From a virus (lineage: Duplodnaviria > Caudoviricetes), in IMG/VR virus record IMGVR_UViG_3300031555_004728, positions 192,001-256,000 of that record: a stretch of 64,000 bases of DNA, one strand, 5' to 3'. Position numbers and translations under genes: made by a program. Shown piece by piece: positions 1,309 to 50,387 of the stretch (positions within the stretch are counted from its first letter, which is position 1; the number at the start of each line of letters is the position of its first letter). A model generated the notes under the pieces. It ran no database searches. It saw only the letters and a program-made list of their open reading frames with translations, and was not told where the DNA came from.

Positions 1309-1346
1309 ATTTTTATTTAAATATTATTTAGCAGGAGAGGGGGCGG

Positions 1347-1428
1347 GAACCAATTTTGTTAAGTTAACTTTCTCTAGTTATCGATAATTTACGAAGAATA
1401 CAGAAATCTTACTTAACAAAACTGCAAC
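1347..1428 (+). repeat. 82-bp palindromic cassette-leader repeat, copy 1
   Basis: GAACCAATTTTGTTAAGT...ACTTAACAAAACTGCAAC; five further copies in the window. Confidence 0.95.
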
Positions 1429-1824
1429 CAAATAACATGCCAGATATATCATTATTCTGTTGATGGTAATAATCCTTTAGGTATACCTTGGGGTTGTTTT
1501 ATATATAAATATTCCAATGGATTAATGATGATATCTGCTTGGCAAACAGTTAGTGATATTCCTGTATCATCATCATGGGGATCTTTATATTCATCTGCCA
1601 GAATTGGTGGGATTGCATACGGATATCAATCTAATACATGGGTACCAGTAACATTTAAAAATGTATTTTTTGAAATTGCATGGTCAAACCACCCGAACCT
1701 ATTAACATTGGGAGGTGGAGGATTTTATCATGAACAAACACAAGATATATATCTTGTATCTGCTGTAAATATTCCAGATGTTGATGCTACTATATATTAT
1801 CATACAGTAGGTATATGGAAATAA
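1417..1824 (+). CDS. tail-fibre tip cassette 1, no 5' start codon (gp53-like C-terminal domain)
   Basis: Frame open from QNCNQ in the repeat; YKYSNGLMMISAW...YHTVGIWK resembles gp53-like fibre C-termini. Confidence 0.65.
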   Translation, partial: QNCNQITCQIYHYSVDGNNPLGIPWGCFIYKYSNGLMMISAWQTVSDIPVSSSWGSLYSSARIGGIAYGYQSNTWVPVTFKNVFFEIAWSNHPNLLTLGGGGFYHEQTQDIYLVSAVNIPDVDATIYYHTVGIWK

Positions 1825-2755: not shown

Positions 2756-3097
2756 TTAAAATCCTATTACTAAATAACTGATTTTATATGTACTATCTTC
2801 TGAAAGTGATCCATTAAAATTCCATCCTTTAATATTAACCTTAGTTCTCTCTATAGTACCAACACCCACATTTATAATTGTATCAATATACTCATTTCCT
2901 GCATTTTTTGTAACACTAACAAATGGCTCTTGTGTATAACTAACAGGATATGTCAACTGTCCTTGAAGTATCCACTCTGATATTGGGACAATATCAATAT
3001 ATCCAAAACATATTTTAAGACCATTTTCAAATATTAAATATCCTGATGTTCCATCTTCAAGTTGTTTTCTATATTCTATAAGTCGATTGCAGTTTTG
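2756..3097 (-). CDS. tail-fibre tip cassette 2, no 5' start codon (gp53-like domain)
   Basis: QNCNRLIEYRKQLEDGTSGYLIFENGLKICFG...TYPVSYTQEP...SYLVIGF*; matches the GY..F.NGL..xG / YP..Y...P / Y..IG pattern. Confidence 0.75.
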   Translation of the reverse strand, partial: QNCNRLIEYRKQLEDGTSGYLIFENGLKICFGYIDIVPISEWILQGQLTYPVSYTQEPFVSVTKNAGNEYIDTIINVGVGTIERTKVNIKGWNFNGSLSEDSTYKISYLVIGF

Positions 3098-3167
3098 TTA
3101 AGTAAGTTTTCTGTAATCTAAGGAAAATCTCGATAACTAGAGAAAGTTAACTTAACAAAATTGGTTC
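3086..3167 (-). repeat. 82-bp palindromic cassette-leader repeat, copy 2
   Basis: Reverse-strand copy, same length as copy 1. Confidence 0.95.
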
Positions 3168-4012: not shown

Positions 4013-5287
4013 TTATTTTGTTTTATGAAGTCTTCTAAGTTCAATATATGCTAATATAGAGAAATCTCCATTACCTGTTGTATTTACAAATTTAAATACA
4101 GTTTTACTTAAAAAATAAGTTCCTTTATATTTATTAGTAAGTTTTTGGTCTTCAAAAACTAATGAAAATTTCTTATTTGGTGTTAAAGCGGATACATCAA
4201 CGTCACTAATCATACCTGATATAATTAATGAGTTTGATGATGTTTGAGCTGTAAATGTGGTATTAAGCCATTCATTTTCACCTTCATTTTCAATAATTGC
4301 TACATTAGCATCTCCATTAGTAATTGTATTACTAGTAGATTTACTTGTATTTCCAGTAGATGTGTTTATAACTAAAGCATCACTACCAGTTAAAACATCT
4401 CTAGTAACTGATTTATTACTAATTTTTATTTCATCATAATTCCAATTTATATAATGTCTATTATCATTACTTTCAATACTTCCTATACCTGAATTTTCTA
4501 CACTTGTTAATTTTGGTATATAAATACAAGTTTCAGTTTTCTCACCATTTTCAAATGCTGTACATCCACCTTTAAAATTCAAAATATAAGTTCTATCAAT
4601 ACCAAAAAATATAACAGAACCGTATTTATAAAAACCATACATTGCATCTAAATGTAATAGTTGTTTATTTATGGTTAGTGGTGGTAATAAAATTTCTTCA
4701 TAAGTTCTATTATTTTCTAATGGACTTACTAAAGCATTTTTAATCTTACTAATACCAAATAAATATCCTATTACACTAGATAATGTAACATTTTTAAGAA
4801 TATTATTTATTTGGGTTTTTACTCCTGTAGATGTTTCTTCCCTGTACAAGAATAACTCTAATGGATAATCATACATTTCAAGTTCATCATCTGAATTAGA
4901 TTTATTTATTTTTTCTTGTAAGTCTAAATCATCATCTCTTGATATGTCCATTGTATCATCTATTATTACAAAAGTATCATTTATAAAATCTTTATACATA
5001 GATTTTTTATTACTTCCATATAATTGATAGTATTTTTGTAATCTAAGTTTAATTTTCACTTCAGTTTTATTATTAAGTATTTTATAGTATGTACTGCTAT
5101 CTAAAACTAAATTTAATTTAAAAATAGGGAATGTGTTATTAAAATAATCATTCACTAATTCAATACCAGTAACACACATTTTATCTAATTGAATTGCTTC
5201 ATCATTGACTAAAATTATACATGAATATATAGAATATCTCCATGATTGTAATTTGGAAGAATCAAATAACGCCATGATTAAAGTCAC
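4013..5287 (-). CDS. putative baseplate hub/tail-associated structural protein
   Basis: 424 aa; C-terminal LTPNKKF...YKGTYFLSKTVFKF resembles hub/late-control-D C-termini (weak). Confidence 0.4.
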   Translation of the reverse strand: MTLIMALFDSSKLQSWRYSIYSCIILVNDEAIQLDKMCVTGIELVNDYFNNTFPIFKLNLVLDSSTYYKILNNKTEVKIKLRLQKYYQLYGSNKKSMYKDFINDTFVIIDDTMDISRDDDLDLQEKINKSNSDDELEMYDYPLELFLYREETSTGVKTQINNILKNVTLSSVIGYLFGISKIKNALVSPLENNRTYEEILLPPLTINKQLLHLDAMYGFYKYGSVIFFGIDRTYILNFKGGCTAFENGEKTETCIYIPKLTSVENSGIGSIESNDNRHYINWNYDEIKISNKSVTRDVLTGSDALVINTSTGNTSKSTSNTITNGDANVAIIENEGENEWLNTTFTAQTSSNSLIISGMISDVDVSALTPNKKFSLVFEDQKLTNKYKGTYFLSKTVFKFVNTTGNGDFSILAYIELRRLHKTK

Positions 5288-5336
5288 CTTCCTTTCAAAA
5301 AAATATCACTTAAGGTAATGTGCCTTAAGTGATATC

Positions 5337-6425
5337 TTAAATTGTAAGTTCTTCAAGCATAAATCTATGCTCATAAAATCTTGTTGAATTGAGTTGTAAT
5401 AAACCATTATGATCAAACCTATCTACTAACTGTGATTCAACAGAGTGAATTTGTTCTTTTGTAAGTTTACTATACATAGTTTCCATATCCAAACAATTAA
5501 AATTACATATTACATCTTCTTGTAGTTCTTCAGGAAAAATACTTGAAATAGTTTGGATATTAGTTGTATTTATAGTTATCTTATTTTCTCTTAATCCTTG
5601 ATTAAGAAGTTTTAATAAAGTTATATTTCCTATACCTGGTATTTTTTCAACTGCTCTATATTGCTCTCCAAGTACAGAAAATAATAACATATAAAATGAT
5701 TTATTACAATATAAATTTAGTTCTTCATTATAATCTCCATTTGGTTTATTCAATAATGATGATAAATGTCCTTTTAAATCTCCACTTGTTGTTGATTTTA
5801 TAGGACTACGTCTAAGATAGTGACAAATATAATTTGGTATTAACGAATACTGAGTATCTACGTATTCTCCAGTCACTAATAAATTTTTTCTACTTTTATC
5901 CAAATTACCAATTATAAGAGGAACTAAAGAACTATCAAAACCTTTAGTAGTTATAAAATAAACACCCTTAATATAATTACAAATTGCTTGTGTTTGAGGT
6001 ATTATGGTATTTTTAAATTTTTCTGACATCTCCATATATTTTGGATTCTTTGAATATTTAACTGTATAATATGACCTAAAATCAGGATTAATTTCCGTTT
6101 CGTTAAATTTATCTTCTGAATAATCTGTCATATATAGATACACTCTTGTATCTAGGTTGTTTCCTCTAAAAAACTTTCGATAATGTGCAGCTAGATTTAT
6201 AATATTAGATATAATATTTTCATTAAAATCTGTGCACGAATAAACTTTTCTGTCTACATCTTTTATATTAGATAATAATCTAAGTATAGATTCTAGATTA
6301 ATAAATACATTTACTTTATCAGTCGGTTGTAAAAAATTTAACTCGTCCAAACTTTGATCGTATGTTGCATATTTAATCTTCATCACATTAAAACAAACAG
6401 AAAAGGAATCAAATTCATTCATCAT
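5337..6425 (-). CDS. 5'-3' exonuclease / T4 RNase H-like (FEN family)
   Basis: Helix-hairpin motif EKIPGIGNITLLKLL; size fits; acidic motifs look degenerate. Confidence 0.6.
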   Translation of the reverse strand: MMNEFDSFSVCFNVMKIKYATYDQSLDELNFLQPTDKVNVFINLESILRLLSNIKDVDRKVYSCTDFNENIISNIINLAAHYRKFFRGNNLDTRVYLYMTDYSEDKFNETEINPDFRSYYTVKYSKNPKYMEMSEKFKNTIIPQTQAICNYIKGVYFITTKGFDSSLVPLIIGNLDKSRKNLLVTGEYVDTQYSLIPNYICHYLRRSPIKSTTSGDLKGHLSSLLNKPNGDYNEELNLYCNKSFYMLLFSVLGEQYRAVEKIPGIGNITLLKLLNQGLRENKITINTTNIQTISSIFPEELQEDVICNFNCLDMETMYSKLTKEQIHSVESQLVDRFDHNGLLQLNSTRFYEHRFMLEELTI

Positions 6426-6529
6426 AATGATTACCGTTCCTTTTATAATATTATCAAAAAGTTTTAACGTTAGAAAAATAGTATGACAAGATCAATTTCA
6501 TGACCTTGTCATACCAATTATTTCATAAC

Positions 6530-7237
6530 TTATTTATTCACATGAGTTTGTTTTACAATTCTAAGAATGTCTGAAACATTGTCTTTCTTTTGTTTCTTCG
6601 GTTCTTTTGTAACGAAGTACTTGTAATTTTCATGTGAAATTCTTTCGACCTTTTCAATAACTGTAAAGTATCTTGGAACACCCTGTTTTGTAACATCGTC
6701 ATTACCAGTTTTAATCATATCACTGATGACTTTAATAGGGTCAATTAAGAAAACAACTGACTTACGAGAAGAGTCATTTGATTTCATAATCTTTGGTGAG
6801 CATAGACCTGCTATCTCACTAGCCATTCTTGATGTAAGTGACAGGTTCTTTTTAAGAAGTCCTGAATTTAAGAATGCTTTCTTATCATCTTTTGTATAGA
6901 TGAATGATAATAATGCATCCCAGATTGGCTTTTCAATTTTTGACACGTTATCATTACTTTCGTCTTTGAAAATGTCATAGATTCCTTGACCATTAGCACC
7001 TCTGCTCTTAATTGCTTCCTCTGGAAGAACGATCATCATAGGAACAAATTTCTTAGTCCAGTCAATTGACACAAGGCTAATTTGTACATCTGGTATATCA
7101 ATACCATTTTTACGTGCTGTACTTGTAAAAGTATTCAGTCTTTTTTGTAGAAAGTCTGCTACTTGAGATGTAGCAATTTCAAATTTTTCGACAGTTTCGA
7201 CAGGTTGAAGTCCTGCCCTGTTACCGTTATTGGACAT
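6530..7237 (-). CDS. hypothetical protein
   Basis: ORF with AGGAGG RBS and TATATTAT motif upstream. Confidence 0.75.
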   Translation of the reverse strand: MSNNGNRAGLQPVETVEKFEIATSQVADFLQKRLNTFTSTARKNGIDIPDVQISLVSIDWTKKFVPMMIVLPEEAIKSRGANGQGIYDIFKDESNDNVSKIEKPIWDALLSFIYTKDDKKAFLNSGLLKKNLSLTSRMASEIAGLCSPKIMKSNDSSRKSVVFLIDPIKVISDMIKTGNDDVTKQGVPRYFTVIEKVERISHENYKYFVTKEPKKQKKDNVSDILRIVKQTHVNK

Positions 7238-7369
7238 ATCTAAGTCCTCCTTTTATAAAATATTTTTTTATTGATAAATAGATTAAATCTATTATATCTA
7301 AATTAATAATATACTCTCAAAAGTATAAAATCAATTTTCTTAATTTGATGTTTCGTATCGTATTTATTT

Positions 7370-7834
7370 TTATACTGATGAAGCAAATCCTATTACACCT
7401 GTTAAAATAAACCAATTTAAAATTATTAGCAATATATGTGCAATCTGATCACCTAGTAGTGAAATCTTATATTGGTTTGCTTTCATATCATCAATTGCAT
7501 AATGAGAATATGTTGCTGCGAAAAGTAATAAAGCAGTAATCATTATTACATACCAATCATTCATACACACAGGATTTATTAAAAATCCGTAAACTATTAT
7601 AGGTATAAAAACCATAATAGAATTTTCTAATGAATGAAGAAACAATGCTACTTTATAATCACTTTGATAAAGTTCGTCTGGATAATTTTCTACCCACCAT
7701 GATTCTTGTTTCATATAACAGAATTTACCTTGTAATACGAAGTCATCGATGATATGCATCAATATCATCAAAAATAGTATATAAATACTGTCTGCTCTAA
7801 TCATATCATCTACCTCCTCACATAATAGAAACAA
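7370..7834 (-). CDS. DUF3307-like membrane protein
   Basis: HIIDDFVLQ...H...HYAIDDMK...DQIAH motifs with hydrophobic segments; true start probably ~7803-7806. Confidence 0.7.
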   Translation of the reverse strand: MFLLCEEVDDMIRADSIYILFLMILMHIIDDFVLQGKFCYMKQESWWVENYPDELYQSDYKVALFLHSLENSIMVFIPIIVYGFLINPVCMNDWYVIMITALLLFAATYSHYAIDDMKANQYKISLLGDQIAHILLIILNWFILTGVIGFASSV

Positions 7835-8216
7835 ATATTGGATATGTTAACCAACTAAGTAAACCTATCCATGTTGTAATTTTAAATTGTTCCTTAGTAT
7901 CACTTGTGTATCTTATAGTTTCAATAAATAAAGCTACATTGGTGAAAATGTAAATTAGTGTAACTATAATTGTGTATACATCCAAAACATTTTCTATTGT
8001 TGTTAAACAGAAGTATATAACAACTAATCCAAATGTAAATAATAACCATTCGATACTTGCTAATAAACAATCTCCAAATTTTTCAACTTTGCTTACTTTA
8101 TAAATATTAAAGTCTAATTCTCTAACTTTAGAAGTTGCAAAACTTGTCAAAATAATACATAAAGATAAAATTATGTATCCTGGAATATGTGGTATTAATA
8201 ATCTTATAACGTCCAT
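7818..8216 (-). CDS. membrane protein (about 4 TM)
   Basis: Hydrophobic segments; abuts neighbouring genes. Confidence 0.6.
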   Translation of the reverse strand: MDVIRLLIPHIPGYIILSLCIILTSFATSKVRELDFNIYKVSKVEKFGDCLLASIEWLLFTFGLVVIYFCLTTIENVLDVYTIIVTLIYIFTNVALFIETIRYTSDTKEQFKITTWIGLLSWLTYPIFVSIM

Positions 8217-8602
8217 TATATAATCACTCCTATCTGTTTAAGACTTATAAATGTAATCGCCCATACTACAAATGATAATAAAAGTAATTTTTTATATCTT
8301 CGTTTAAAAGATATTTCTTGTATTATAAATACTCTATGAACTAAAAATACAATGCACCATAATATTAAATGCATAATTGTAAAATATGTTGATACAGAAG
8401 GTTTTATATATACAGCTTGTACAATTGATATCATAAAGCAACTTGATAATGTATATTTGATACTATATAAATTAAGTTTTAATCTAGTACCTTTATTAAT
8501 AGCAGTTTCAACATTAATTATTGATGCTAAATCCATCAGTATACTAATAAATATAAATCCACAAAGCCATAAAATACCTTCCATAAAATTTAATCTTACC
8601 AT
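8216..8602 (-). CDS. membrane protein (about 4 TM)
   Basis: Hydrophobic segments; AGGAGG RBS. Confidence 0.6.
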   Translation of the reverse strand: MVRLNFMEGILWLCGFIFISILMDLASIINVETAINKGTRLKLNLYSIKYTLSSCFMISIVQAVYIKPSVSTYFTIMHLILWCIVFLVHRVFIIQEISFKRRYKKLLLLSFVVWAITFISLKQIGVII

Positions 8603-8843
8603 TTTTGACCTCCTTTACCATTTGTAGGTGGGAATAATTGTGATATAATAACAACTAACATCACAATCAAAAACCATGTTGAAGCTGTATTATTCATCAC
8701 ATTTATCTCCTTCATTTTCATCAGTATTTTTAGAATTGATTAATTCTAATTCGTATCTAATATCACCTAATTTATCATTTATTATATATAATATGAATAC
8801 TATTATTCCTAAACAAATATAAATTATTTCTTCATGTTCCATA

Positions 8844-10052
8844 TTAATCATTCATCTCCATTTCTATAAGTTTCATGACATCTGTATGTAAATACATATC
8901 TATTTGCTCCCCTCCTAATTCCTTTCCATTTAAATCTTTGATATATGTATTTAAAACTTCCCCAACAGATAGATTCTTATTGAGTATATAGTCATACTTA
9001 AATAATATATCTTTTAAAGCCGATTCGTCAGTTTGCTTTTTCTTTGATATATATCCATTTACAAAGTCACAATGAACTCCATTTAAATTTCTGAAATTCT
9101 CTCTCATAGTACTTATAAAAAATTCTGGATTTGGGTAATCTTCTGGTATATTGAAAATAAGTCTTGTACTTTTATTATCACTATTTTCAATTAAGTTTCT
9201 TAATGTCTTTAAATGATTTTCAAGCATTTCTTCTGATGAAAAAATTTCATGGTCGTATCCAAATATATGAGTTTTAAATTTTGGAGCATCATAATTCTCG
9301 TGAAATTCCGATGAATAATGAGGTTCATCTTCTAAATCACAAATTATTTCATAATATCCCTTTGGTTCTTCTTCACCATGTATCCAACGAGTAAAACTTC
9401 CAACATAATGGACATAATCTTGAATTACTGTATGTACATGGTAATGACCGAAATAAACTTCACCTTTACAGCATTTCTTAAAATCTGCTGTAGTAAATAC
9501 AGCTGGTTTAAGTCTACTATCTTTATCTTTTTTATTTTCTCTTTTAATCATAGTCATTGCTTCAGCAATTACACCATGACCAAATATATAATCATATTTT
9601 TTCTTTTGACTGAAGAACTCTTTATAGTATTCATCTTTATCTTTAATATACTCTTCAGGAAGATACAAAACTTGCATTCCTGGAAGTAGTTCTTCTTCGC
9701 AAACGGTTTTAATAATTTTAAAATCTAAACCTTTCATATTTTCATAAATAGAAAATATATGGTACTGATCTACTTCATGTGATTCTGTACCATAAACAAT
9801 TCGTATACATTTTGTATATTGGGTTAATTTATTCATAAGCCATAATCCTGCATCACTAGCACGATTGTTTAAGAATATTTTCTTATCCCAATAATCACCA
9901 TCTATAATTATAAAGTCAAAATAATATCTAGTGTCCAAAAGATTAAATAGATTAGTTCTAAGCTCTTGTTTCATTTCATCAACATCTGTTGCTCCGAAAT
10001 GTATGTCCGCTAGAACTAATCCTCTATATTTTTTACTCATAACACTATCCAT
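8844..10052 (-). CDS. SbcD/Mre11-like metallophosphoesterase nuclease
   Basis: ADIHFG, GDYWD, GTESHE, FGHG and FGHYH motifs. Confidence 0.8.
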   Translation of the reverse strand: MDSVMSKKYRGLVLADIHFGATDVDEMKQELRTNLFNLLDTRYYFDFIIIDGDYWDKKIFLNNRASDAGLWLMNKLTQYTKCIRIVYGTESHEVDQYHIFSIYENMKGLDFKIIKTVCEEELLPGMQVLYLPEEYIKDKDEYYKEFFSQKKKYDYIFGHGVIAEAMTMIKRENKKDKDSRLKPAVFTTADFKKCCKGEVYFGHYHVHTVIQDYVHYVGSFTRWIHGEEEPKGYYEIICDLEDEPHYSSEFHENYDAPKFKTHIFGYDHEIFSSEEMLENHLKTLRNLIENSDNKSTRLIFNIPEDYPNPEFFISTMRENFRNLNGVHCDFVNGYISKKKQTDESALKDILFKYDYILNKNLSVGEVLNTYIKDLNGKELGGEQIDMYLHTDVMKLIEMEMND

Positions 10053-10142
10053 CCTTTGCTATTTATTCTTAATTTTTTGTAAATAGAAAAATATTATTTT
10101 ACTGAAGATGTCATGAATTTAATAAAGAAAGGATGGTAATAA

Positions 10143-11168
10143 ATGTTTGATGTACATGAAAGAGACAGACAAGAAATTGACACGATTTTGGATAACCTGA
10201 AAAAGCAGGGCAAAATTGATTTAGAACTTAAAGGTGATAATGAAAGACAACTTTTCCAAGACCAATTTCACCAGCAAGCAATTCAGATGGGATTATTACA
10301 ACAACCCAGTTCTGAATTTGCAAGTTCGTATAATGTACTTAGAGAATTTTTACTTAGTAAGAAATTTGAAAATCTTTCTAGTAATACTTTAAAAATTTAC
10401 TATAATACGATTTTCAATTTTATTGAACAAATGGATGAAGGTAAGACTCTATTTGATGTCAAGACTGCTGATATCAGAGCTTATTTAATGCACTATCAAG
10501 ATGAACATAAGTGTTCTAGTCTAACTATAGATAATATGAGAAGGTGTTTCTCATCATTTTATAATTGGCTAGAAGATGAGGATTATGCTATTAAAAACCC
10601 GGTTAAAAAGATAAAGAAAATAAAAAGTGATAAAGTTATAAAGAAACCATTTAGTCATGAAGAATTGGAAATGATTAAAGATGCTTGTAGAAACTATAGG
10701 GAATTATCACTTATAGAGTTTCTGTATTCTACAGGTATTCGTGTTAGTGAACTTTGTGGACTAGATATTTCAGATTTAGATTTTAACCAAAGAGAAGGTA
10801 TTGTATTTGGTAAAGGTAGCAAAGAACGTGTTATATATTTTGATGTTAGAAGCAAAGTCCATTTATTACGATATTTAAATACAAGAGTCGATAATAATCC
10901 GGCATTATTTGTTACTAAGAAATATCCATTTAATAGATTAGAAAAAAGCGGTGTCGAATCTATTATAAGAGAAATAGGTAAACGTGCTGGAGTGGAAAAA
11001 TGTCATCCACATAGATTTAGAAGAACATTTGCTACTAACCTTCTCGATAGAGGGGTTCCTATCGAGCAAGTACAGATTTTATTAGGTCATAATAAAATAG
11101 ATACTACGTTATTATATGCTACAGTAAATACACAATCAGTTAAATTAAATCATGACAGATTCGTTTAA
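10143..11168 (+). CDS. tyrosine recombinase (XerD-like, N-terminal SAM-like domain), candidate cassette recombinase
   Basis: Catalytic residues: TGIRVSE (R), GKGSKER (K), HPHRFRRT (HxxR), LLGH (H), TTLLY (Y). Confidence 0.92.
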   Translation: MFDVHERDRQEIDTILDNLKKQGKIDLELKGDNERQLFQDQFHQQAIQMGLLQQPSSEFASSYNVLREFLLSKKFENLSSNTLKIYYNTIFNFIEQMDEGKTLFDVKTADIRAYLMHYQDEHKCSSLTIDNMRRCFSSFYNWLEDEDYAIKNPVKKIKKIKSDKVIKKPFSHEELEMIKDACRNYRELSLIEFLYSTGIRVSELCGLDISDLDFNQREGIVFGKGSKERVIYFDVRSKVHLLRYLNTRVDNNPALFVTKKYPFNRLEKSGVESIIREIGKRAGVEKCHPHRFRRTFATNLLDRGVPIEQVQILLGHNKIDTTLLYATVNTQSVKLNHDRFV

Positions 11169-11179
11169 TTAGAAAATAA

Positions 11180-11212
11180 AAATGACTAGATAGAAAATCT
11201 ATCTAGTCATTT
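11180..11212. terminator. bidirectional terminator between convergent genes
   Basis: AAATGACTAGATAGA / TCTATCTAGTCATTT inverted repeat flanked by A and T runs. Confidence 0.75.
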
Positions 11213-11224
11213 ATTTTTTTAATA

Positions 11225-12130
11225 TTAGAATGTGATATCAATTGCTTTAACAGCTTCGATTGTTTCAGCATTTCTAATTTCAACTTCAATTTCCTGTTGT
11301 TTAGATACTAATGGTCTAACAACTGCTTCAATGTCTGCAGCAAGAGCCTGAAGTTCATCTAATGTCCAGTCATATGTACATACTTCTCCAGTAGCATTCC
11401 ATGATGGAGTATATTCTGGATTTAATGATGCCATCATAATAACTGCCATAAGTTGTGATTGTTTTTCTTGTGTCATACTGTATTCAGCTTCAACACCAGC
11501 ATGTGCTGTAGATTTAACAGTATTTGTTGCAAGATAATTTGCAAGATTAACTTTGCTTGTTGCAATTCTGTAATCTTTAAGACCTTCAAGATCAAGTTCA
11601 TCTTCATCAAGAAGATTAAGTTGTGTCTTGATAATGTCAATATCACTTGCATTACTTGTAACAGTTTCATTATATTTAGCCATTTGAGCTAATGATTCTT
11701 TAAGTTCAGTATTAGCTGTGCTCAAAGTTTCAACTTTACCAGCAAGTGTCTTATTTTCTCCTTGAAGTGTATTAACAAGATCTTCAAGAGTTGCAATCTG
11801 CTCTGGGATTGTTGTAGAGAGGCTCATCTTAGCTTCTAATACTTCAACTTCTTCACCATCAATTTCAACAAATGCTGTTGAGATTTGTTCTAATACAGTA
11901 TAATCATTGATTGTACGAACTTCAACTTCATTTTCATATACTGTAAGAACTGCAGTCTTTAATTCATCCTGACAGATAGCTTTTACTGCTGCAATTGTAT
12001 CAATTTCTTTGCCAAATGTAAAGCAAATAACTTTTTTACTAACGCCTTTTCTTTTAAGAATTGATTCAAAAGGAAGGGCTGCAAGAGGATATGCAGTAGA
12101 GTCATTTGTGACTAATTTATACATACTCAT
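11225..12130 (-). CDS. coiled-coil protein with C-terminal DUF4376-like domain (tail-fibre associated/chaperone)
   Basis: C-terminal W..T...WTLDELQALAADI...QQEIEVEIRNAETIEAVKAIDITF pattern; central heptad repeats. Confidence 0.6.
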   Translation of the reverse strand: MSMYKLVTNDSTAYPLAALPFESILKRKGVSKKVICFTFGKEIDTIAAVKAICQDELKTAVLTVYENEVEVRTINDYTVLEQISTAFVEIDGEEVEVLEAKMSLSTTIPEQIATLEDLVNTLQGENKTLAGKVETLSTANTELKESLAQMAKYNETVTSNASDIDIIKTQLNLLDEDELDLEGLKDYRIATSKVNLANYLATNTVKSTAHAGVEAEYSMTQEKQSQLMAVIMMASLNPEYTPSWNATGEVCTYDWTLDELQALAADIEAVVRPLVSKQQEIEVEIRNAETIEAVKAIDITF

Positions 12131-12297
12131 AGTAAATTATACCTCACTTTCAAAATTTTAAATAATTAATTTTTAATTACTTTTTCATTTATTGAAATGT
12201 TTCATTTGATGAGAATAGATTAATAATTTAAAAATATATTATATTTAAGTATAGACTATATAATAATACTATTTCTAAAAAAGAAGGGAGTATACAA

Positions 12298-13107
12298 ATG
12301 AGTATTAAAGAAGCAAAAAAGAAAGCAATTAAGAGACAAAAAAGAGAAGAACTTGGATATAAGTTCAGATGTGTTTTAGCAACACTTATTATGATTTTAT
12401 TGGTATCTGGTACATGTGTTGGTGGAGTTGCAATCGTTATTGCATCTGCTAATTCCGCACTTGAAGATATTAGTAAATCAATCGTCTCAAACGAAAATGA
12501 AACTAAAAGTGTAAAAGAAAAAGAAGAGAAAGAAATCATTGAAACTGTAGCAGCTATTGATACTATCTCAGATAAGACAAGTGAGGTTGAAACTGCAGTA
12601 GACGTCAATGAAGAAATTCATCAGGTACATTATGAAAAAATGAGCAAAGAAGAAATTGTATCTGAAGGATTATCACAAGATGAAAATGTAGCACAAAGAA
12701 TGACTATCGACCATAATACAATGTCTATACTTATTCGAGTAGTCGAGGCTGAAGTTACAGGTTCGTCATTCAGATACAAAGGAAATGATGTAAGTTATGA
12801 TGAATTATTAAAATCTAAAATTAGAGTTGCTCAGGTATTCATGAATCGAGTCGAGGATCAAGGTGAATTTAAAAATATAACATCATTATATCAATCACTT
12901 ACATATCCAGGAGCTACATCTACATTTGGTGATGGAAGATATTATAAAGTAGAAATTACTGACATTACTAGAGAAGCTGTTAGATTAGCTTTAAGAGCAG
13001 ATACACCTGATTATACAGATGGTGCATTGTTCTTTAATAGTGGCACATCTTGCAAATATGGTTCATACCTATTTACAGATGCTGTCGGACATTCATTCTA
13101 TAAATAA
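12298..13107 (+). CDS. membrane-anchored SleB/Hydrolase_2-like cell-wall hydrolase
   Basis: N-terminal TM; RVVEAE, VAQVFMNRV, DYTDGALFF, GHSFYK. Confidence 0.75.
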   Translation: MSIKEAKKKAIKRQKREELGYKFRCVLATLIMILLVSGTCVGGVAIVIASANSALEDISKSIVSNENETKSVKEKEEKEIIETVAAIDTISDKTSEVETAVDVNEEIHQVHYEKMSKEEIVSEGLSQDENVAQRMTIDHNTMSILIRVVEAEVTGSSFRYKGNDVSYDELLKSKIRVAQVFMNRVEDQGEFKNITSLYQSLTYPGATSTFGDGRYYKVEITDITREAVRLALRADTPDYTDGALFFNSGTSCKYGSYLFTDAVGHSFYK

Positions 13108-17067: not shown

Positions 17068-17149
17068 GAACCAATTTTGTTAAGTTAAATTTCTCTAGTT
17101 ATCGATAATTTACGAAGATTACAGAAATCTTACTTAACAAAACTGCAAC
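17068..17149 (+). repeat. 82-bp palindromic cassette-leader repeat, copy 3
   Basis: Two substitutions relative to copy 1. Confidence 0.95.
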
Positions 17150-17542
17150 CAACAAGAAATTTCTGAAACTTTAAACTATAGAAATGCTTATATAGAAGTA
17201 TTAAAAAATGATGATCAGACAAATACTACAATAACACCTGGTACAGATACTACTTTAAATATGTTTACAATACCTAGTACTGGCATATATTTTATAGTAG
17301 CATCCATAACTGCTACTAGTAAAGAAGATAATAAATATTTAATATTTCATTTGATTAAAACAACTTCAACAGGAACATATTGGACACCTATAGAACTTTG
17401 TGATAGTGGTTCTTATACAAGACTTTCAGGTTCTTGTATGGTTCCACTTGATAAAGGTACTATTTTAACACTTAAAGCAAGTACAAATAATTCAAGTAAT
17501 TTAAGTGTTAGTTATCGTTTTAGTATAGTAAAATTAGTATAA
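17138..17542 (+). CDS. cassette 3, no 5' start codon (C1q/BclA-like beta-sandwich, putative fibre tip)
   Basis: QNCNQQEISETLNYRNAY...FTIPSTGIYFIVAS...LDKGTILTL...FSIVKLV*; FT.P..G.Y and L.KG motifs. Confidence 0.6.
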   Translation, partial: QNCNQQEISETLNYRNAYIEVLKNDDQTNTTITPGTDTTLNMFTIPSTGIYFIVASITATSKEDNKYLIFHLIKTTSTGTYWTPIELCDSGSYTRLSGSCMVPLDKGTILTLKASTNNSSNLSVSYRFSIVKLV

Positions 17543-18143: not shown

Positions 18144-20897
18144 TTACATAGATTTTCTATCAGCTATTTCAGCCATTTTTGCAGCATTGAGTCTAGTATC
18201 GCCATGAACTCTTGAATATGATAAATATCCATTCATTCGTTCTATGGAAAGTATATGTTTAGAACCACATTTTGGACATACATCCATAGCAACACCTTCT
18301 TTACCACAATCTTCACAATAACAAAGAGTAAAATTAACACCTTCATACAATCCCATTTTCATAGCACGCCTTACGAAAGCTCTAATTGCATCTTTGTTAT
18401 AGTTAATTCCATATTTTACATATTGAATTCTTCCACCAGCACTTAAATTCCAGAATCTATATTCTTTATCTTGTTTTTCAATTCCATCCATTTCTTCACT
18501 TACATGACAATGGAATGAATTACTTACATATTCTCTATCAGAAACATTTTCCACAATACCATATTTTTGTCTAAATTGAGTAACTTGTGTTCCACATAAA
18601 CTTTCTGCTGGAGTTCCATAAATCGCATAAAGAATACCATCTTCTTTTTTAAACTCATTAATTTTATCGTTAATGTGTTGCATAACTTGTAATGGAAATT
18701 CTCCATCTTCACGAATAGATTTTCCATTATGTAATTGATTAAGTTCATTAAGCGCAGTAAATCCATAACTTGCTGTAGCGTATTTTAATAAAGGTTTAAT
18801 TTTTTCAGATGGATCTAAGAAACCATTATGAAAGCCACCTTGACAAAATGCTACAGGATTAGTACTTGCTTTAATATTAGATAAATATTCATATGTCATA
18901 ATATGAACTTCTCTAATTAATTGGAGATATTCATCTAAAACTTCATAGAAGTCTCTGTCTTCTTGTTTAGCTTTAGCATAAATCATTGGTAAGTGAAGTG
19001 ATACTACACCAATATTAAATCTTCCAGTGAAGAATGGTTTATCATTCTCATCTGCAGGATACATTCCACCACGTTCATAATATGGTGAAAGAAAAGCTCT
19101 ACAGTTATGAGAATCAAGTTCATTAACCATAAATCTGTCTGATTCTGTAGTGAAGTCATAACTGAATTTTCTTTGATGGAAAATTTCAATTTTTTCTACT
19201 TCAAATTCAGTATACATTTTGTAATCTGTAATACCAACTATTTTATCTCCTACTTGTATATTTTGTGCTTCAGTTCTTCCTTTTCCAATTATTGGAAGTG
19301 GATGATCAAAAGTACACATAAGTGATCTTTCTCTCGAACTGAAGTATTTTGTATCTTTAAAAGTGATTTTAATCCATTCATCAGTAACATTTCTGATTAC
19401 TCTATGAACTTTAACAAATTCATTTTTATTGATATCATATGTATAAAGATTAATAGGATCTGCATAAAAATCCCATTCTCTTCCTTCTTGTAATTTTACA
19501 CCAAACTTGGTAGGAATATTTCCAAGTTCGATTTCTTCCCAAAGATCTTCAAATGTATAATTAATATATTTATTATCATTATCATCTTCAGGTTTATTTT
19601 CTTTAATTCTGATTCTAGCAGAACCATCAACACAGCCCATAGGTGCAATAATTTCACCGTATTTATGCCACATTTCTGCTACAGTTGTATCTCCATCAAG
19701 AGATAAATAATCAGGATACATAGCTTTTGATGAGCAATCTAATGCTTCTTCAAAAAGCCATTCCAATTCTTTTCCCGGTCCATGTAAATCCTCAGTATAT
19801 GTAAATACTAATTTAGGGAAAAGAACTGATTTCTTTTTACCTGGTGCTCCTTGCCCTTCTTTTCTAACTTTAAGACAAATAGATGCTGCTAAACTAGCAA
19901 ACTTATCTGTTGAAACACCGATTGTGAATGTAGTAAATGGATAATCTCCTCTACTACTTGCTACAGTATTAAGTTTAATTTCAAGACCTTGGAAACCTTG
20001 TTCCATATCTCTTATAACTTTTGCCATTGCTTCATCTTCTGCTTCTTTAAATAATAGTGCTTTCATTTCATCTGTAATTTCAACACCTATAGTACTTAGA
20101 GCAGATAATAATGAATTAAGTTTTGATTCATAAATACCACTTTTATATTTATCAAAACTTAATTTAGCATATTTGGATACTAACTCATCAATACGTGGAA
20201 CTGTAAAACCACCGTATTGCTGACTTGCTGCGGATAAAATAATATCACCGATAACGTCAAATGTCGTATCGAGTGATTTTGGTTCATTATACCAGAGATT
20301 ACCCATCTCAAATCCACCAGTTAAAACAGTTTTAACATCAAAAAGACAACAGTTGATACCGTCTCTTCGAGAACTCATATCATGAATGTAAATATATCCA
20401 TCTCTACATGCCTGTAACATCTTTTTATTTAACTGGAATTTTTGGTATAATTCTTTGTTAAGTTGTCCAAAAATAAGACTACGTTTAGTAGATACTAACG
20501 TAGAATCTGAATTTGCATTTTCTTTATCACCGATATACATAATAGCTTGTGCTTTTTTATAGATAGAATCTATCATTGCGACAAATGAGGTTTTGTAATC
20601 ACGATAGTCTCTATAACTTTTTGCTACTTCAGGTGCAATTTCTTCTAACACTTTTTCTACTATATTATGCATCATTGGTACGGTTATATATCCATTACCA
20701 TCTTCTTCTTTTACCCAGTATTCTTTATTATGAATACTTTCATTTGCAAATTCTTTAATACGTCTAATTTCTTCATCAGAGAATTTATAAAGAACTCTGA
20801 ATGCAGATTTTTTAACAGCATTAATGATCTTATCTACATTAAAAGGCTGTATCGTATTATCCTTTTTAATAATATAAATCATATCATAAACCTCCAA
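18144..20897 (-). CDS. nrdD: anaerobic ribonucleoside-triphosphate reductase with ATP cone and intein
   Basis: N-terminal ATP cone; YIHDM, NCCLFD, PMG|CRAFL, YGTPAESLC, CxxC...CxxC and glycyl-radical RMNGYL motifs. Confidence 0.95.
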   Translation of the reverse strand: MEVYDMIYIIKKDNTIQPFNVDKIINAVKKSAFRVLYKFSDEEIRRIKEFANESIHNKEYWVKEEDGNGYITVPMMHNIVEKVLEEIAPEVAKSYRDYRDYKTSFVAMIDSIYKKAQAIMYIGDKENANSDSTLVSTKRSLIFGQLNKELYQKFQLNKKMLQACRDGYIYIHDMSSRRDGINCCLFDVKTVLTGGFEMGNLWYNEPKSLDTTFDVIGDIILSAASQQYGGFTVPRIDELVSKYAKLSFDKYKSGIYESKLNSLLSALSTIGVEITDEMKALLFKEAEDEAMAKVIRDMEQGFQGLEIKLNTVASSRGDYPFTTFTIGVSTDKFASLAASICLKVRKEGQGAPGKKKSVLFPKLVFTYTEDLHGPGKELEWLFEEALDCSSKAMYPDYLSLDGDTTVAEMWHKYGEIIAPMGCVDGSARIRIKENKPEDDNDNKYINYTFEDLWEEIELGNIPTKFGVKLQEGREWDFYADPINLYTYDINKNEFVKVHRVIRNVTDEWIKITFKDTKYFSSRERSLMCTFDHPLPIIGKGRTEAQNIQVGDKIVGITDYKMYTEFEVEKIEIFHQRKFSYDFTTESDRFMVNELDSHNCRAFLSPYYERGGMYPADENDKPFFTGRFNIGVVSLHLPMIYAKAKQEDRDFYEVLDEYLQLIREVHIMTYEYLSNIKASTNPVAFCQGGFHNGFLDPSEKIKPLLKYATASYGFTALNELNQLHNGKSIREDGEFPLQVMQHINDKINEFKKEDGILYAIYGTPAESLCGTQVTQFRQKYGIVENVSDREYVSNSFHCHVSEEMDGIEKQDKEYRFWNLSAGGRIQYVKYGINYNKDAIRAFVRRAMKMGLYEGVNFTLCYCEDCGKEGVAMDVCPKCGSKHILSIERMNGYLSYSRVHGDTRLNAAKMAEIADRKSM
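19104..19634 (-). mobile_element. mini-intein (177 aa) in NrdD
   Basis: Starts CVDGSARI, block B CTFDHPL, ends YDFTTESDRFMVNELDSHN before C(+1) of CRAFL; no LAGLIDADG motif. Confidence 0.9.
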
Positions 20898-20956: not shown

Positions 20957-21038
20957 GAACCAATTTTGTTAAGTTAAATTTCTCTATTTCTCGATAATTT
21001 ACGAAGAATACAGAAAACTTACTTAACAAAACTGCAAC
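20957..21038 (+). repeat. 82-bp palindromic cassette-leader repeat, copy 4
   Basis: Same length and arms as copy 1. Confidence 0.95.
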
Positions 21039-21329
21039 CAGCAAGATCTTGAAACTTATATATCATCATCCACAATGCCATATGTATTTATAACATGTAG
21101 AGAAACTGATTCTACTGAAGTTGTAGATATCTTAAATTGTATACTTGATGAATTACCTAATGATATTTTATTTGGTATTAGGTTAGAAGGTCATAATATT
21201 CCAAGACAGTTTGGATCAGGGTATTTATATGATAATAGTAATTATGGTTCACTAATATTATCTACATGGGATGCACCTGCATTTTTTAGAATTTATAATA
21301 AAGAAATAACAAGAATAGTTTTAACCTAG
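21027..21329 (+). CDS. cassette 4 (putative fibre-tip domain)
   Basis: QNCNQQDLETYISSSTMPY...GSGYLYDNSNYGSLILS...; in frame with the repeat; resembles cassette 5. Confidence 0.55.
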   Translation, partial: QNCNQQDLETYISSSTMPYVFITCRETDSTEVVDILNCILDELPNDILFGIRLEGHNIPRQFGSGYLYDNSNYGSLILSTWDAPAFFRIYNKEITRIVLT

Positions 21330-21356: not shown

Positions 21357-21438
21357 GAACCAATTTTGTTAAGTTAACTTTCTCTATCTTTCGATAATTT
21401 CCTTTGATTACAGAAATCTTACTTAACAAAACTGCAAC
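21357..21438 (+). repeat. 82-bp palindromic cassette-leader repeat, copy 5
   Basis: Tandem after cassette 4. Confidence 0.95.
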
Positions 21439-27710: not shown

Positions 27711-28367
27711 TTAAATTGCCCAATATCCATCTACTGATATTAAACCTTCAATTTTATTAGTATTATCATATCCAGAACCACTTACTGTATAACATAATAA
27801 TGCAAATCCAGTGTCCCATAATTCTCTTATATAATAATTTTTTACAAACCACATTCCACCATGCAACGTAAACTGTGGACAGGCATTATAAATATTAAAT
27901 GGATAAAGACATGCTGTTGATGGTGTACCTGCACTATCTGATGTTGCACCATTAATACCTGATGCTACACACCATGCTTTACAATAGCCATTTTGATATT
28001 TTATATAATTCCAGTTATTTATTTTACCGCTTTCTACCATAGGATTTTCACGAGCCCACGGTTCAAATTTACGTACAACTGTAACACCATCAGAGTCATG
28101 CATTGTTAAATATGCTCTTCTATATACTCTTCCATTAATAGTTGTGAATTCTTGAAATTTATATATCCATGGAGATCCAGGTGAATTGAATGAACCGTTT
28201 CCATCATAAACCATAAGTCTACCAGCAGAAACTTGTGGGAGATTTAAACATGTTTCTGCCTCAGTATTTCCTTTTACATAATATATACCACTATCTAAAA
28301 CTGTATTAATATCAACATTTTCTAAGTATCCTTTAATAATAACAAGATTTTGAGAGTTGCAGTTTTG
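27711..28367 (-). CDS. tail-fibre tip cassette 6, no 5' start codon (pyocin-knob-like plus gp53-like domains)
   Basis: QNCNSQ...DINTVLDSGIYY...NLP..SAGRLMV...QEF...VYRR, then ESG...WNYIKYQNGYCKAW...VDGYW. Confidence 0.75.
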   Translation of the reverse strand, partial: QNCNSQNLVIIKGYLENVDINTVLDSGIYYVKGNTEAETCLNLPQVSAGRLMVYDGNGSFNSPGSPWIYKFQEFTTINGRVYRRAYLTMHDSDGVTVVRKFEPWARENPMVESGKINNWNYIKYQNGYCKAWCVASGINGATSDSAGTPSTACLYPFNIYNACPQFTLHGGMWFVKNYYIRELWDTGFALLCYTVSGSGYDNTNKIEGLISVDGYWAI

Positions 28368-28437
28368 TTAAGTAAGATTTCTGTAATCTTCGATAATTCT
28401 CTAAAGATAGAGAAATTTAACTTAACAAAATTGGTTC
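28356..28437 (-). repeat. 82-bp palindromic cassette-leader repeat, copy 6
   Basis: Reverse-strand copy. Confidence 0.95.
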
Positions 28438-44009: not shown

Positions 44010-45416
44010 GTGAATACATTGAAAGTAGGATTATTAAATACTGAAGAATTTATTTCAGTAAATAATCTTAAGGAAATAACATCACCTGTTATGTTCCAAA
44101 GAGGAAATAACCCTCATCCAGAAGGTCTCTTTAGTACTGAAATTTTTGGTATGACACCAAAAGATAGAAAAGAGACTTTTGCATATATTAATTTAAATCA
44201 TGTATTCCTACATCCTCATATTTATAAGATAATGAAACGATTTTTTAGAAACGTTGAAAAAATAGTTAATGGTTCTTCTTATTATCAAATTAATAGTGAA
44301 GGACATCTTGTTTTATCTGATAATATTAATGGGGAAACAGGAGTTCAATTTTTATATGATAACTGGGAAAAGATTAAATGGGAATATTCTGATTCACCGT
44401 CAAGAAACGAAAGAATTGATGTTGTGACAAAAAGTAAGAAATCAGAAGTTTTCATTTCAAAACTTATAATCATTCCACCATTTTATCGAGATGTAACATC
44501 ATCATCAGGTGGAGGACAAATACCAGAGATTAATAACTTTTATGCAAATGCTATTCGTTTATCTTCTATATTAAAAGAAAACGATTTATTTAGTTTTAAT
44601 CTCTATTCATCTCAATATGCTATACAAGAATTACTTGTAGAGACATATGATTATTTTAAAGAAAAACTTCAATCTAAAAATGGTTTACTTAGAAAATATC
44701 TTATGGGTAAAAACGTTGACCTTTGTACAAGAGCTGTTATTACAGCAGCATCTTTCCATGCAAATAGACCTGAAGATATGCAGATTAATCTTAAATATAG
44801 TGGTGTTCCTATATCACATATTTTATCTCTATGTAATCCATTTATTATGACATGGATTAAAAATTTCTTTGAACGTGAATTAATGGATCCAAGTGAAAAG
44901 CATTTAATTGATTCTAGAACTGGGAAGGTTGTTGAATTAGTTGAACTTGCTAATCCTGAACTTATTTTTACTGATAAAGAAATTACAAAGAAAATGAATT
45001 CATTTATTAAAGATCCAGATATGAGATTCAAGCCAATTGAAGTTCCTCTTAAAAATGGAAAAACTTCATATCTTTTATTTCATGGTAAAAGATATGATAT
45101 GAGAAATAAAGATGAAATTGCATCAATTGCTAATAGAAAGATGACATGGACAGATGTATTTTATATGGCATGTGAAGATGCAGTTAAAGATAAACATGCA
45201 ATTATTACTAGATATCCTTTGATTGACCAGTATGGTCTTTTTGTTACTAGAGTAACTACATTGAGTACATCAAAAACTGTACCTATGCAAGTTGGTGAAA
45301 CTTTATATCCATATTATCCAGATATTGATTTATCTGTACCAGATAGTAAAGTTCCTACTTTATTTATAGATTCAGTTATGTTCTCTAATAGTTATCTTCC
45401 TGGTATAGATGGTGAT
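44010..45416 (+). CDS. phage multisubunit RNA polymerase beta'-like subunit, exon 1
   Basis: GLFSTEIFG, IIPPFYRD, KNGLLRKYLMGKNVD..RAVIT, TRYP; ends GIDGD. Confidence 0.9.
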
Positions 45417-45699
45417 TAACAAAATAGTTACCTAACCTCTTTAATTGCTGGAAACTCCTTAGAGTCTAAACTACCAAAGTGTAACAATGTTTAGAATTGG
45501 ACAATCAGCAGCGAAGCTTCTTATTATAAGAAGAACGTTCAACGACTATCGAAAGCATAACATAAGAGAAAGACTTATGTGAAGAAGTGAGTAGAGTAGG
45601 ATTTATAATCCGAAATGGGAGGCAATATTAATTTGGTAGTAGAATTAATATTGAAGATATAGTCTGAACTTTATAGAAATATAGAGATTAACATAGTTG
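45417..45699 (+). mobile_element. group I intron (283 nt, no homing endonuclease ORF)
   Basis: P AATTGCTGGAAA, Q AATCAGCAG, R GTTCAACGACTA, S AAGATATAGTCT; P1 pairs exon GGTGAT with GTTACC (U-G at splice site); ends in G. Confidence 0.92.
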
Positions 45700-49927: not shown

Positions 49928-50387
49928 GTTTCAAGTTATAAATCCGAGTCAAAAGAAAGTAAATATATAATAAAAAAGAACTAAATTAAAAATAAATTAA
50001 TAAAAATAGTAAAAAAGAATTAAAAGATAATAAAAAATAATAAAAAGAATTAAAGATAATAAAAAAAGATTAAAAAATTAAAAATAATAAAAAAGAATTA
50101 AAAAAATTAAATAAAAATTAAAAGATAATAAAAAATTAATAATAAAAATATTAAAGAGAAATAAAAAAATAAATAATAAAATTAAATAATAAAAATAAAA
50201 AAAAAATAAATAAAAAATAATAAAAAATAATAAGATAAACAAAATAAATAAAGGGGAGAAAGAAAAGAAAAATAAAGAAAATAAATAATAAAAAAAGAAA
50301 AAGAAAGAAGATAATAAAAAAGAACGACGACGAAGGAGGAGTTCTTTTTTATTATATTTTTTTTTGACCCGAATTATTACTTGAAAC
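49928..50387. repeat. A-rich low-complexity tract bounded by ~50-bp imperfect inverted repeats
   Basis: Arms 49928-49982 and 50340-50387; interior mostly A with AATAAAAA-type units. Confidence 0.8.

Follow-up and report, generated by a model that had tools for sequence, protein, structure and literature searches.

Known phage tail-fibre switches choose among two to a handful of alternatives held in one compact locus. In the Gin, Cin and Min systems, serine invertases act on two to six sites in one segment. The shufflon of plasmid R64 (Rci, sfx sites) recombines by inversion only, at seven sites clustered within 2 kb. Integron attC sites are imperfect palindromes: their outer boxes are conserved, the central part remains unpaired and the tip varies. 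The Rin shufflon of Bifidobacterium prophages, as set out in the passages of Mavrich et al. (2018; PMC6109161) that deal with it, uses a tyrosine recombinase and 11-bp asymmetric sites to connect one constant N-terminal segment with five variable C-terminal receptor-binding segments, and occurs as isoforms that differ between genomes, with breakpoints in the sites; the same passages name Gin (Mu), Cin (P1) and Min (p15B) as tail-fibre inversion systems.

Here we describe an 82-bp element in a phage genome, which is probably the recombination site of a dispersed tail-fibre tip-switching shufflon with two different crossover cores. Most likely, the phage recombinase re-joins a single fibre gene to a new tip at these sites and so alters the bacteria to which the phage can attach. 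If active, the system would give a 275-kb phage of animal guts 36 alternatives, stored across its genome; it would be the expressed constant module that moves, rather than the tips, and the system would rank among the largest programmed host-range repertoires known without a diversity-generating retroelement. The window, that is, the whole stretch of 64,000 nucleotides analysed, corresponds to bases 192001–256000 of a virus record that is 275,512 bp long, carries direct terminal repeats and has a G+C content of 28.5%. Coordinates refer to the window unless given as genome positions; elements of the genome are designated by genome position.

Architecture and copies of the element

The element at 1347–1428 is composed of GAACCAA, the arm TTTTGTTAAGT, 46 nt, the arm ACTTAACAAAA and CTGCAAC. 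The two 11-nt arms are a perfect inverted pair and bound a 68-nt imperfect palindrome (1354–1421), in which TTTCT (1369–1373) lies opposite AGAAA (1402–1406); the arm pair and inner pairing that an earlier, sequence-only reading had described can be read directly here. The exact 11-mer arm occurs 12 times in the window, at six sites, four on the plus and two on the minus strand, and 22 matches were found when up to one mismatch was allowed, against 6.6 expected from shuffles (shuffle maximum 14). The 68-mers start at 1354, 17075, 20964 and 21364 on the plus strand and at 3093 and 28363 in inverted orientation, and the alignment of the six copies is directional:

1347–1428, plus strand: element copy 1; GAACCAA, 68-nt palindrome at 1354–1421, CTGCAAC
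3086–3167, minus strand: element copy 2; inverted copy
17068–17149, plus strand: element copy 3; located by arm search and alignment of copies
20957–21038, plus strand: element copy 4; first of a tandem pair
21357–21438, plus strand: element copy 5; second of the tandem pair
28356–28437, minus strand: element copy 6; inverted copy

In the whole genome, 34 copies with exact arms were found, against none for a reversed-pattern control, and a 35th copy carries one arm mismatch. The arms, which had been called invariant, are thus exact at all six window sites and identical in 34 of the 35 genome copies. GAACCAA upstream and CTGCAA downstream are invariant in all 35; the earlier remark that AAC flanks five copies had picked up a real conservation of the flanks, and understated it. 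TTTCT/AGAAA is constant genome-wide except for a single mismatch in one copy. The copies are spread from 29.5 to 220 kb (191 kb) and are present singly or in pairs, on both strands. What the sequence-only reading said of the copies was correct, although it missed the two inverted copies and the probable role in tip switching.

No Rfam family reached its gathering score at any element, and between 1200 and 3400 only sub-threshold chance matches were seen. The window contains no tRNA or tmRNA genes, and megablast of 12 kb of it against a phage collection gave no match. A search for hairpin-less (deleted) elements returned two unrelated coding matches only. A loose 14-base pattern picked out approximately 108 stretches in viral contigs, evidently chance matches, and these were left out.

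Interior mosaic and G-rich tract

Variation among the 35 copies falls at element positions 15, 24–45 and 54. Position 15 is C in 19 copies and A in 16, position 54 is T in 17, A in 16 and C in 2, and positions 24–27, 29–34 and 37–45 vary; positions 12–23 and 46–57 form further conserved inner blocks. Altogether there are 22 distinct 68-mers, and all four gametes are present in 61 of 136 informative column pairs, which sets a minimum of 5 recombination events. The polymorphisms listed in the sequence-only reading, and their independent assortment, are thus real, as is the mosaic; this is the recombination test on all genome copies that it had proposed.

That reading had also suggested sequence exchange between copies, and this is borne out by near-identical genomes as well as by the four-gamete mosaicism. 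Three viral contigs are 99.97–99.998% identical to the genome and collinear with it. One of them, 99.97% identical, shows 13 differences in 49,043 bases. Of its three elements, two together account for 10 of these differences, and each has in consequence an interior that the genome carries at other loci; whole interiors have thus been swapped.

A G-rich stretch before the copies, likewise mentioned earlier, is confirmed at positions −15 to −7, which contain 59% G and 1% C (G 185/315, C 4/315) in a genome with 14% G. The genome encodes no reverse transcriptase that could be the source of this tract. In front of copy 1, it reads as follows:

1331–1346, plus strand: purine/G-rich tract before copy 1, GCAGGAGAGGGGGCGG; of variable sequence and almost C-free

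Silent tip cassettes

Directly 3′ of the element, and in the same frame in all 35 cases, lies a start-less open reading frame (ORF) of 90–276 codons. Most of these tip ORFs have 90–145 codons; two are longer (218 and 276). The TAA of the right arm is the last stop before the tip frame, which begins QNCNQ(Q/E)E and lacks a start codon. Upstream of the element, the frame that matches the tip has no ATG, GTG or TTG since the previous stop in at least 16 of the 35 copies, and there is no upstream frame with a start that is consistent across copies. Moreover, stops inside the element close the tip frame in 35 of 35 copies and all three frames in 32. Family matches of the cassettes point to tail fibres. 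The cassette at genome 51069 matches Gp10_C (37.1 bits; cut-off 27) and several tail-fibre PHROGs at their C-terminal ends, and that at genome 191069 matches phrog_4492 (‘tail fiber protein’) over profile positions 788–1039 of 1096 (E = 2e-18); the six window cassettes gave weak family matches or none in Pfam and PHROG searches:

1417–1824, plus strand: silent tip cassette 1; 135 codons, starts QNCNQ; no Pfam match
2756–3097, minus strand: silent tip cassette 2; 113 codons; weak matches to the C-terminal ends of virion/tail-fibre PHROGs
17138–17542, plus strand: silent tip cassette 3; 134 codons; BclA_C/TNF/C1q-like matches, all below cut-off
21027–21329, plus strand: silent tip cassette 4; 100 codons
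21427–21726, plus strand: silent tip cassette 5; 99 codons; similar sequence behind a different element in run X12
27711–28367, minus strand: silent tip cassette 6; 218 codons; weak tail-fibre PHROG matches

Given the start-less common frame, the stops in the elements and the tail-fibre family matches, the cassette ORFs are predicted to be C-terminal receptor-binding tips that would be inexpressible as they stand.

The expressed fibre gene

The single full-length fibre gene lies approximately 4.5 kb to the left of the window, at genome 186101–187528. It has 475 codons, a good ribosome-binding site and an ATG, and is made up of a constant part of around 375 codons, ending ...IDEL-NCN, and a tip of around 100 codons. 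The sequence AACTGCAAC has three occurrences outside elements, and the full 11-nt core AAACTGCAACC is present at one of them only, genome 187226, in the context ...GAGCT-AAACTGCAACC-TGAAT..., approximately 100 codons before the end of the ORF. At this position the core reads Asn-Cys-Asn, and the junction between the constant part and the tip is ...IDEL-NCN-LNEF.... The right border of every element contains this same 11-nt core. The left-half motif GAACCAATTTTGTTAAGT is found once outside elements, at genome 185925, some 175 nt upstream of the fibre ATG. The constant module (approximately 1.3 kb), bounded at its left by the left flank plus left arm and at its right by the right core, thus occupies the place of the 46-nt interior and right arm of an ordinary element. 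The inner arm at the right core of the fibre gene is poor (5/11 matches).

The constant part belongs to no significant family. It matches two PHROGs of unknown function (E = 2e-7 and 4e-6), gives one short match to an annotated ‘tail protein’ (E = 1e-4), and its Atlas neighbours are fibre-like, all scoring below 0.9; it is mainly the tips that suggest its identity as a fibre. The left end of the module (genome 185926–185975) carries the left arm, a degenerate right-arm-like stretch and a second, direct copy of the 11-nt arm, and the same arrangement of arm, degenerate arm and direct arm is present at the left end of the module in the related phage described below.

Comparison with other assemblies

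A scan with the two arms recovered a related phage, consisting of three contigs of one metagenome assembly with 80–97% nucleotide identity to the present genome; L146, from the metagenome arm scan, was a chance match. The constant module of the related phage (95.9% amino acid identity, one copy in the loci compared) is preceded by the upstream flank of element 143228 and followed by the tip of element 142758, to which it is fused in frame (...GAGCTAAACTGCAACC then AACAAGAAATG...). Since the module is joined at the core to a tip different from that in the present genome, the crossover falls within the 11 shared nucleotides. Conversely, the tip expressed in the present genome is a silent cassette in the related phage, behind an intact element that carries the upstream flank of element 195093.

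Both flanks could be mapped for 18 of 28 distinct related-phage elements: 4 are collinear and 14 join a flank to another cassette, including 4 that look like deletions between tandem copies. Inverted blocks are also bounded by elements, for example those at genome 174.8–177.7 kb and 191.1–193.4 kb. The rearrangement breakpoints relative to the related phage thus fall in elements, as expected from the earlier proposal that the element is a recombination site. None of the 14 related-phage interiors equals any of the 22 found here. The arms are identical in all 28 related-phage copies, exact arms having been required by the search, which placed diverged copies outside its scope. The G-rich tract is unalignable between the two phages even where both upstream flank and tip are conserved, and one related-phage tract resembles the tract of a different locus in the present genome.

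Contigs from sequencing runs show further joins. In run X12, the constant module is followed by around 440 nt that cannot be aligned to the present tip, and the sequence after element 187573 continues into a tip like that at 213364. These run data consist of contigs that break at elements, and most of the listed joints, having sides of 20–22 letters, were ignored. Part of the reassortment of flanks and cassettes may be artefactual, as short-read assemblers can mis-join at 82-bp repeats; assembler mis-joining cannot, by contrast, explain the fusion of the constant module across 11 shared nucleotides. Isoforms with breakpoints in the sites are therefore seen between assemblies only, and it is from such differences, in contigs that break at elements, that switching would appear to be ongoing. 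The near-identical contigs G002 and G003 end 21 and 35 bases past an element (genome 29624 and 66664) and Logan contigs likewise break at elements, so that the repeat fragments short-read assemblies. More generally, 82-bp repeats of this kind break, and may scramble, short-read phage assemblies.

Candidate recombinase

The genome has one match to the tyrosine recombinase family PF00589:

10143–11168, plus strand: Xer-type tyrosine recombinase, 341 amino acids; sole PF00589 match in the genome and candidate catalyst

There are no matches to the serine recombinase family PF00239 in the genome (12 of 14 control genomes gave one). The protein matches NF040815 (XerA-type ‘tyrosine recombinase/integron integrase’) with 238.8 bits (cut-off 220), TIGR02249 with 91.9 bits (cut-off 265) and PRK15417 with 52.4 bits (cut-off 435). 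Its nearest solved structures are the XerA-like 4a8e and XerD 1a0p, and its sequence contains what we take, from the family motif, to be the catalytic residues R, K, HxxR, H and Y. It is 98.2% identical in amino acid sequence in the related phage. The gene lies approximately 15 kb from the expression locus and adjoins no element. The enzyme is tied to the sites solely by being the only recombinase found, and we infer that it acts on the elements.

Four relatives from the phage collection were examined, three with 48–50% identity (H8, H9 and H10) and one with 36.8% (H12). Two of the four are located in type I restriction loci, one within an hsdM-hsdS-recombinase-hsdS-hsdR arrangement whose hsdS genes contain direct and inverted repeats, and another beside hsdM. 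The record MT835621.1, possibly bacterial despite its label ‘UNVERIFIED: Bacteriophage sp.’, has a type I restriction locus at 4026–13057; there, the gene for a recombinase 49.8% identical to the present one is placed between hsdS genes with 144-nt direct and 31-nt inverted repeats. From these gene neighbourhoods and the hsdS repeats, the recombinase clade appears to include enzymes in shufflon-like loci and not integrases alone.

Convergent with the recombinase gene, an ORF at 11225–12130 (minus strand) gives coiled-coil-like matches and, at its C terminus, a match to DUF4376 (27.7 bits; cut-off 25), a domain found in phage tail-fibre proteins. Elsewhere in the window, we observed a group I intron at 45380–45686 (plus strand; 87.1 bits, Rfam gathering score 50), a long A-rich low-complexity stretch with overlapping imperfect repeats at 49940–50322, and the gene for the anaerobic ribonucleotide reductase NrdD at 18144–20897 (minus strand; 917 codons). 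The family match of NrdD is split into two stretches (approximately 7–422 and 592–917), which suggests an insertion of around 170 residues.

Proposed mechanism of tip switching

In the mechanism that we propose, the two inverted 11-bp arms would bind the recombinase, with the 46 nt between them serving as filler. Each arm would have its own invariant outer crossover core of 6–7 nt (left, GAACCAA; right, CTGCAA(C)), where the exact cleavage points would presumably lie; because the two cores differ, pairing would be confined to sites of the same side, left with left and right with right. At the expression locus, the constant module would take the place of the filler, with GAACCAA and the left arm on its left and AAACTGCAACC on its right. 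An exchange at the right core would then fuse the constant module in frame to another tip, whereas one at the left core would re-link the upstream flank. Both exchanges together would swap module or filler between loci and leave these otherwise unchanged, much like recombinase-mediated cassette exchange, of which the system would be a natural two-site example. Such a double exchange would fit the whole-interior swaps in the near-identical contig and the relocation of the module in the related phage. A single exchange would invert the stretch between inverted copies and delete a cassette between tandem copies, and would fit the inversions and tandem deletions seen relative to the related phage. 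The model leaves unexplained the mosaic of the filler, the conserved inner blocks at 12–23 and 46–57, and the hypervariable G-rich tract; the filler mosaic would need gene conversion or heteroduplex repair in addition to a tyrosine recombinase with fixed cores.

A further step, which we put forward tentatively and with some doubt, would make double exchange the actual mode of operation. Here, a mobile expression module comprising promoter, start and the constant 375 codons would hop among at least 35 docking sites, trading places with the 46-nt filler and giving 36 alternative tips per lineage. The palindrome would synapse both cores, perhaps as a cruciform, and thereby couple the two exchanges, and the reaction would either require the C-free G tract or produce it incidentally.

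Alternative readings

The site could have the same role and act as a folded single strand or extruded cruciform, like attC or the CTX phage site, a variant that we regard as unlikely. The 11-bp stem and the TTTCT/AGAAA stem would then be the recombinase boxes, the 4 × 4 internal loop the unpaired spacer, and the variable centre a variable terminal structure. Both strands indeed fold into outer stem, internal loop and second stem (−6.9 to −11.8 kcal/mol; z-scores −2.1 to −4.0), with the bottom strand slightly more stable in all three copies tested; the consensus fold retains both stems, variable positions 15 and 54 are opposite each other in the internal loop, and the recombinase is of the Xer/integron-integrase type. 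The commonest interior of the related phage also has a 7-bp tip stem of its own, in another register. However, the stability as single-stranded DNA is modest, the stems are invariant and so yield no covariation, inner pairs 28–41 and 29–40 are broken without compensation in approximately 22 of 36 distinct sequences, and the recombinase misses the integron-integrase model by far (91.9 bits versus 265). A hairpin also seems not to be obligatory, given that the left half-site and right core used at the expression locus are separated by around 1.3 kb and cannot form one. With a small defined site and an Xer-type candidate enzyme, recognition as duplex or as folded strand is directly testable. Were there no dedicated enzyme, the repeats would be hot spots of homologous recombination or gene conversion during replication, and the shuffling a by-product. 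Interior mosaicism with its minimum of 5 events, whole-interior replacement between near-identical genomes and the lack of any interior shared by the two phages (22 versus 14), as concerted evolution within each genome predicts, would all be in keeping with this. We nevertheless consider it improbable: the 11 shared bases through which the module was joined to different tips are too short for homologous exchange, a conserved recombinase, catalytically complete by motif, has been kept, and arms, 7-nt flanks and second stem are invariant over 63 copies in lineages that differ by approximately 8–10% elsewhere. This invariance points to selection on the element sequence, the identity of the related-phage arms being partly by construction, through the exact-arm search.

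The element might also work at the level of RNA or translation, as a structured leader or through a gene-60-like bypass from UGU-UAA in the left arm to a UGC 66 nt downstream, so that the tips would be made singly. The G tract does resemble a ribosome-binding site, and AAC CAA TTT TGT TAA ends in a Cys codon and a stop, with the Cys codon TGC opening the tip in the same frame and the hairpin located in the gap. This is very improbable in view of the 16 or more of 35 copies without ATG, GTG or TTG in frame, with no other frame consistent, the lack of an Rfam family match, the complete fibre gene, which has the same junction without a hairpin, and rearrangements that break exactly at elements; a leader hairpin, a CUG start and the UGU-UAA to UGC bypass were dropped, since there is no consistent start and a complete fused gene exists. 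Scarcely credible, finally, is a selfish miniature palindromic repeat of the REP or MITE type spreading in intergenic DNA: there are many dispersed copies of an imperfect palindrome, with AACCAA on both sides like a target duplication, yet 35 of 35 stand in one orientation and frame before a start-less tip ORF. We therefore retain the tip-switching shufflon as the probable role of the element.

Comparison with known systems

As in a shufflon, the genome has a constant N-terminal segment and start-less C-terminal segments, with a crossover site at their boundary in both orientations; the recombinase, however, is not beside a compact invertible cluster, being approximately 15 kb off, and the cassettes extend from 29.5 to 220 kb. 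With integron attC sites and IntI, the system has in common an imperfect palindrome, promoterless cassettes and an Xer-related tyrosine recombinase. The elements are nonetheless dispersed and lie 5′ of their cassettes, whereas attC is at the 3′ end, in an array beside the integrase and attI; the order of the core boxes is reversed relative to the attC consensus; and the cassettes are gene fragments fused in frame, whereas those of integrons are whole genes. This different layout and the integron-integrase score of 91.9 against 265 bits are evidence against membership in the attC class. An Xer-family recombinase (NF040815, 238.8 bits) and 11-bp arms are features shared with Xer/dif. The dif site is 28 bp long and has inverted 11-bp arms around a 6–8-bp spacer, whereas the arms here are 46 bp apart, and beyond the 7-nt flanks there is no sequence recognisable as an inverted partner arm.

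Among inversion systems, Gin, Cin and Min likewise join a tail-fibre constant part to alternative C-terminal parts and alter host range, but do so by a serine invertase, for which there are no PF00239 matches here. R64 is similar in its tyrosine recombinase, its asymmetric site with conserved arm and spacer, and the swapping of adhesin C-terminal ends; it differs in having neither palindromic pairing of sites nor a filler segment. The hsdS shufflons resemble the present system in that the nearest recombinase relatives in the phage collection (approximately 50% identity) lie in type I loci, but there the target is the specificity subunit and the repeats are coding, whereas here the target would be a fibre and the palindrome is non-coding. 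We also observed, within the initial 7.8 kb of the viral contig G004 (409,537 bp), a distant homologue of the fibre constant part (45% identity over 84 residues) together with a 22-nt G-rich site, present in three copies that face one way and three or four that face the other, one inverted pair being 100% complementary; a distant tyrosine recombinase (26% identity) is encoded at the other end of the contig. Judged from its sequence, this locus resembles a compact shufflon that serves a related fibre.

No dispersed tail-fibre cassette system with palindromic sites was described in the literature searched. Rin, the closest published system found, as portrayed in the consulted passages of PMC6109161, is like the present system in being phage-encoded, in its tyrosine-family enzyme, and in a constant N-terminal segment followed by variable C-terminal segments after a short crossover site, which is 11 bp long in Rin and corresponds here to an 11-nt shared core. 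According to the same passages, the variable segments of Rin form one compact locus, bordered by the constant segment and the recombinase gene, whereas here 35 silent tips and one expressed tip extend over 191 kb, the tips lie among replication and other genes, and the recombinase is not adjacent. Further differences from Rin as described there are the 82-bp composite palindrome, the stops in the tip frame, the two cores, and a constant module that itself relocates. The system described here shares the logic of a shufflon, and differs in its 36 tips, its dispersal over 191 kb, its two-core palindrome with stops and its movable constant module.
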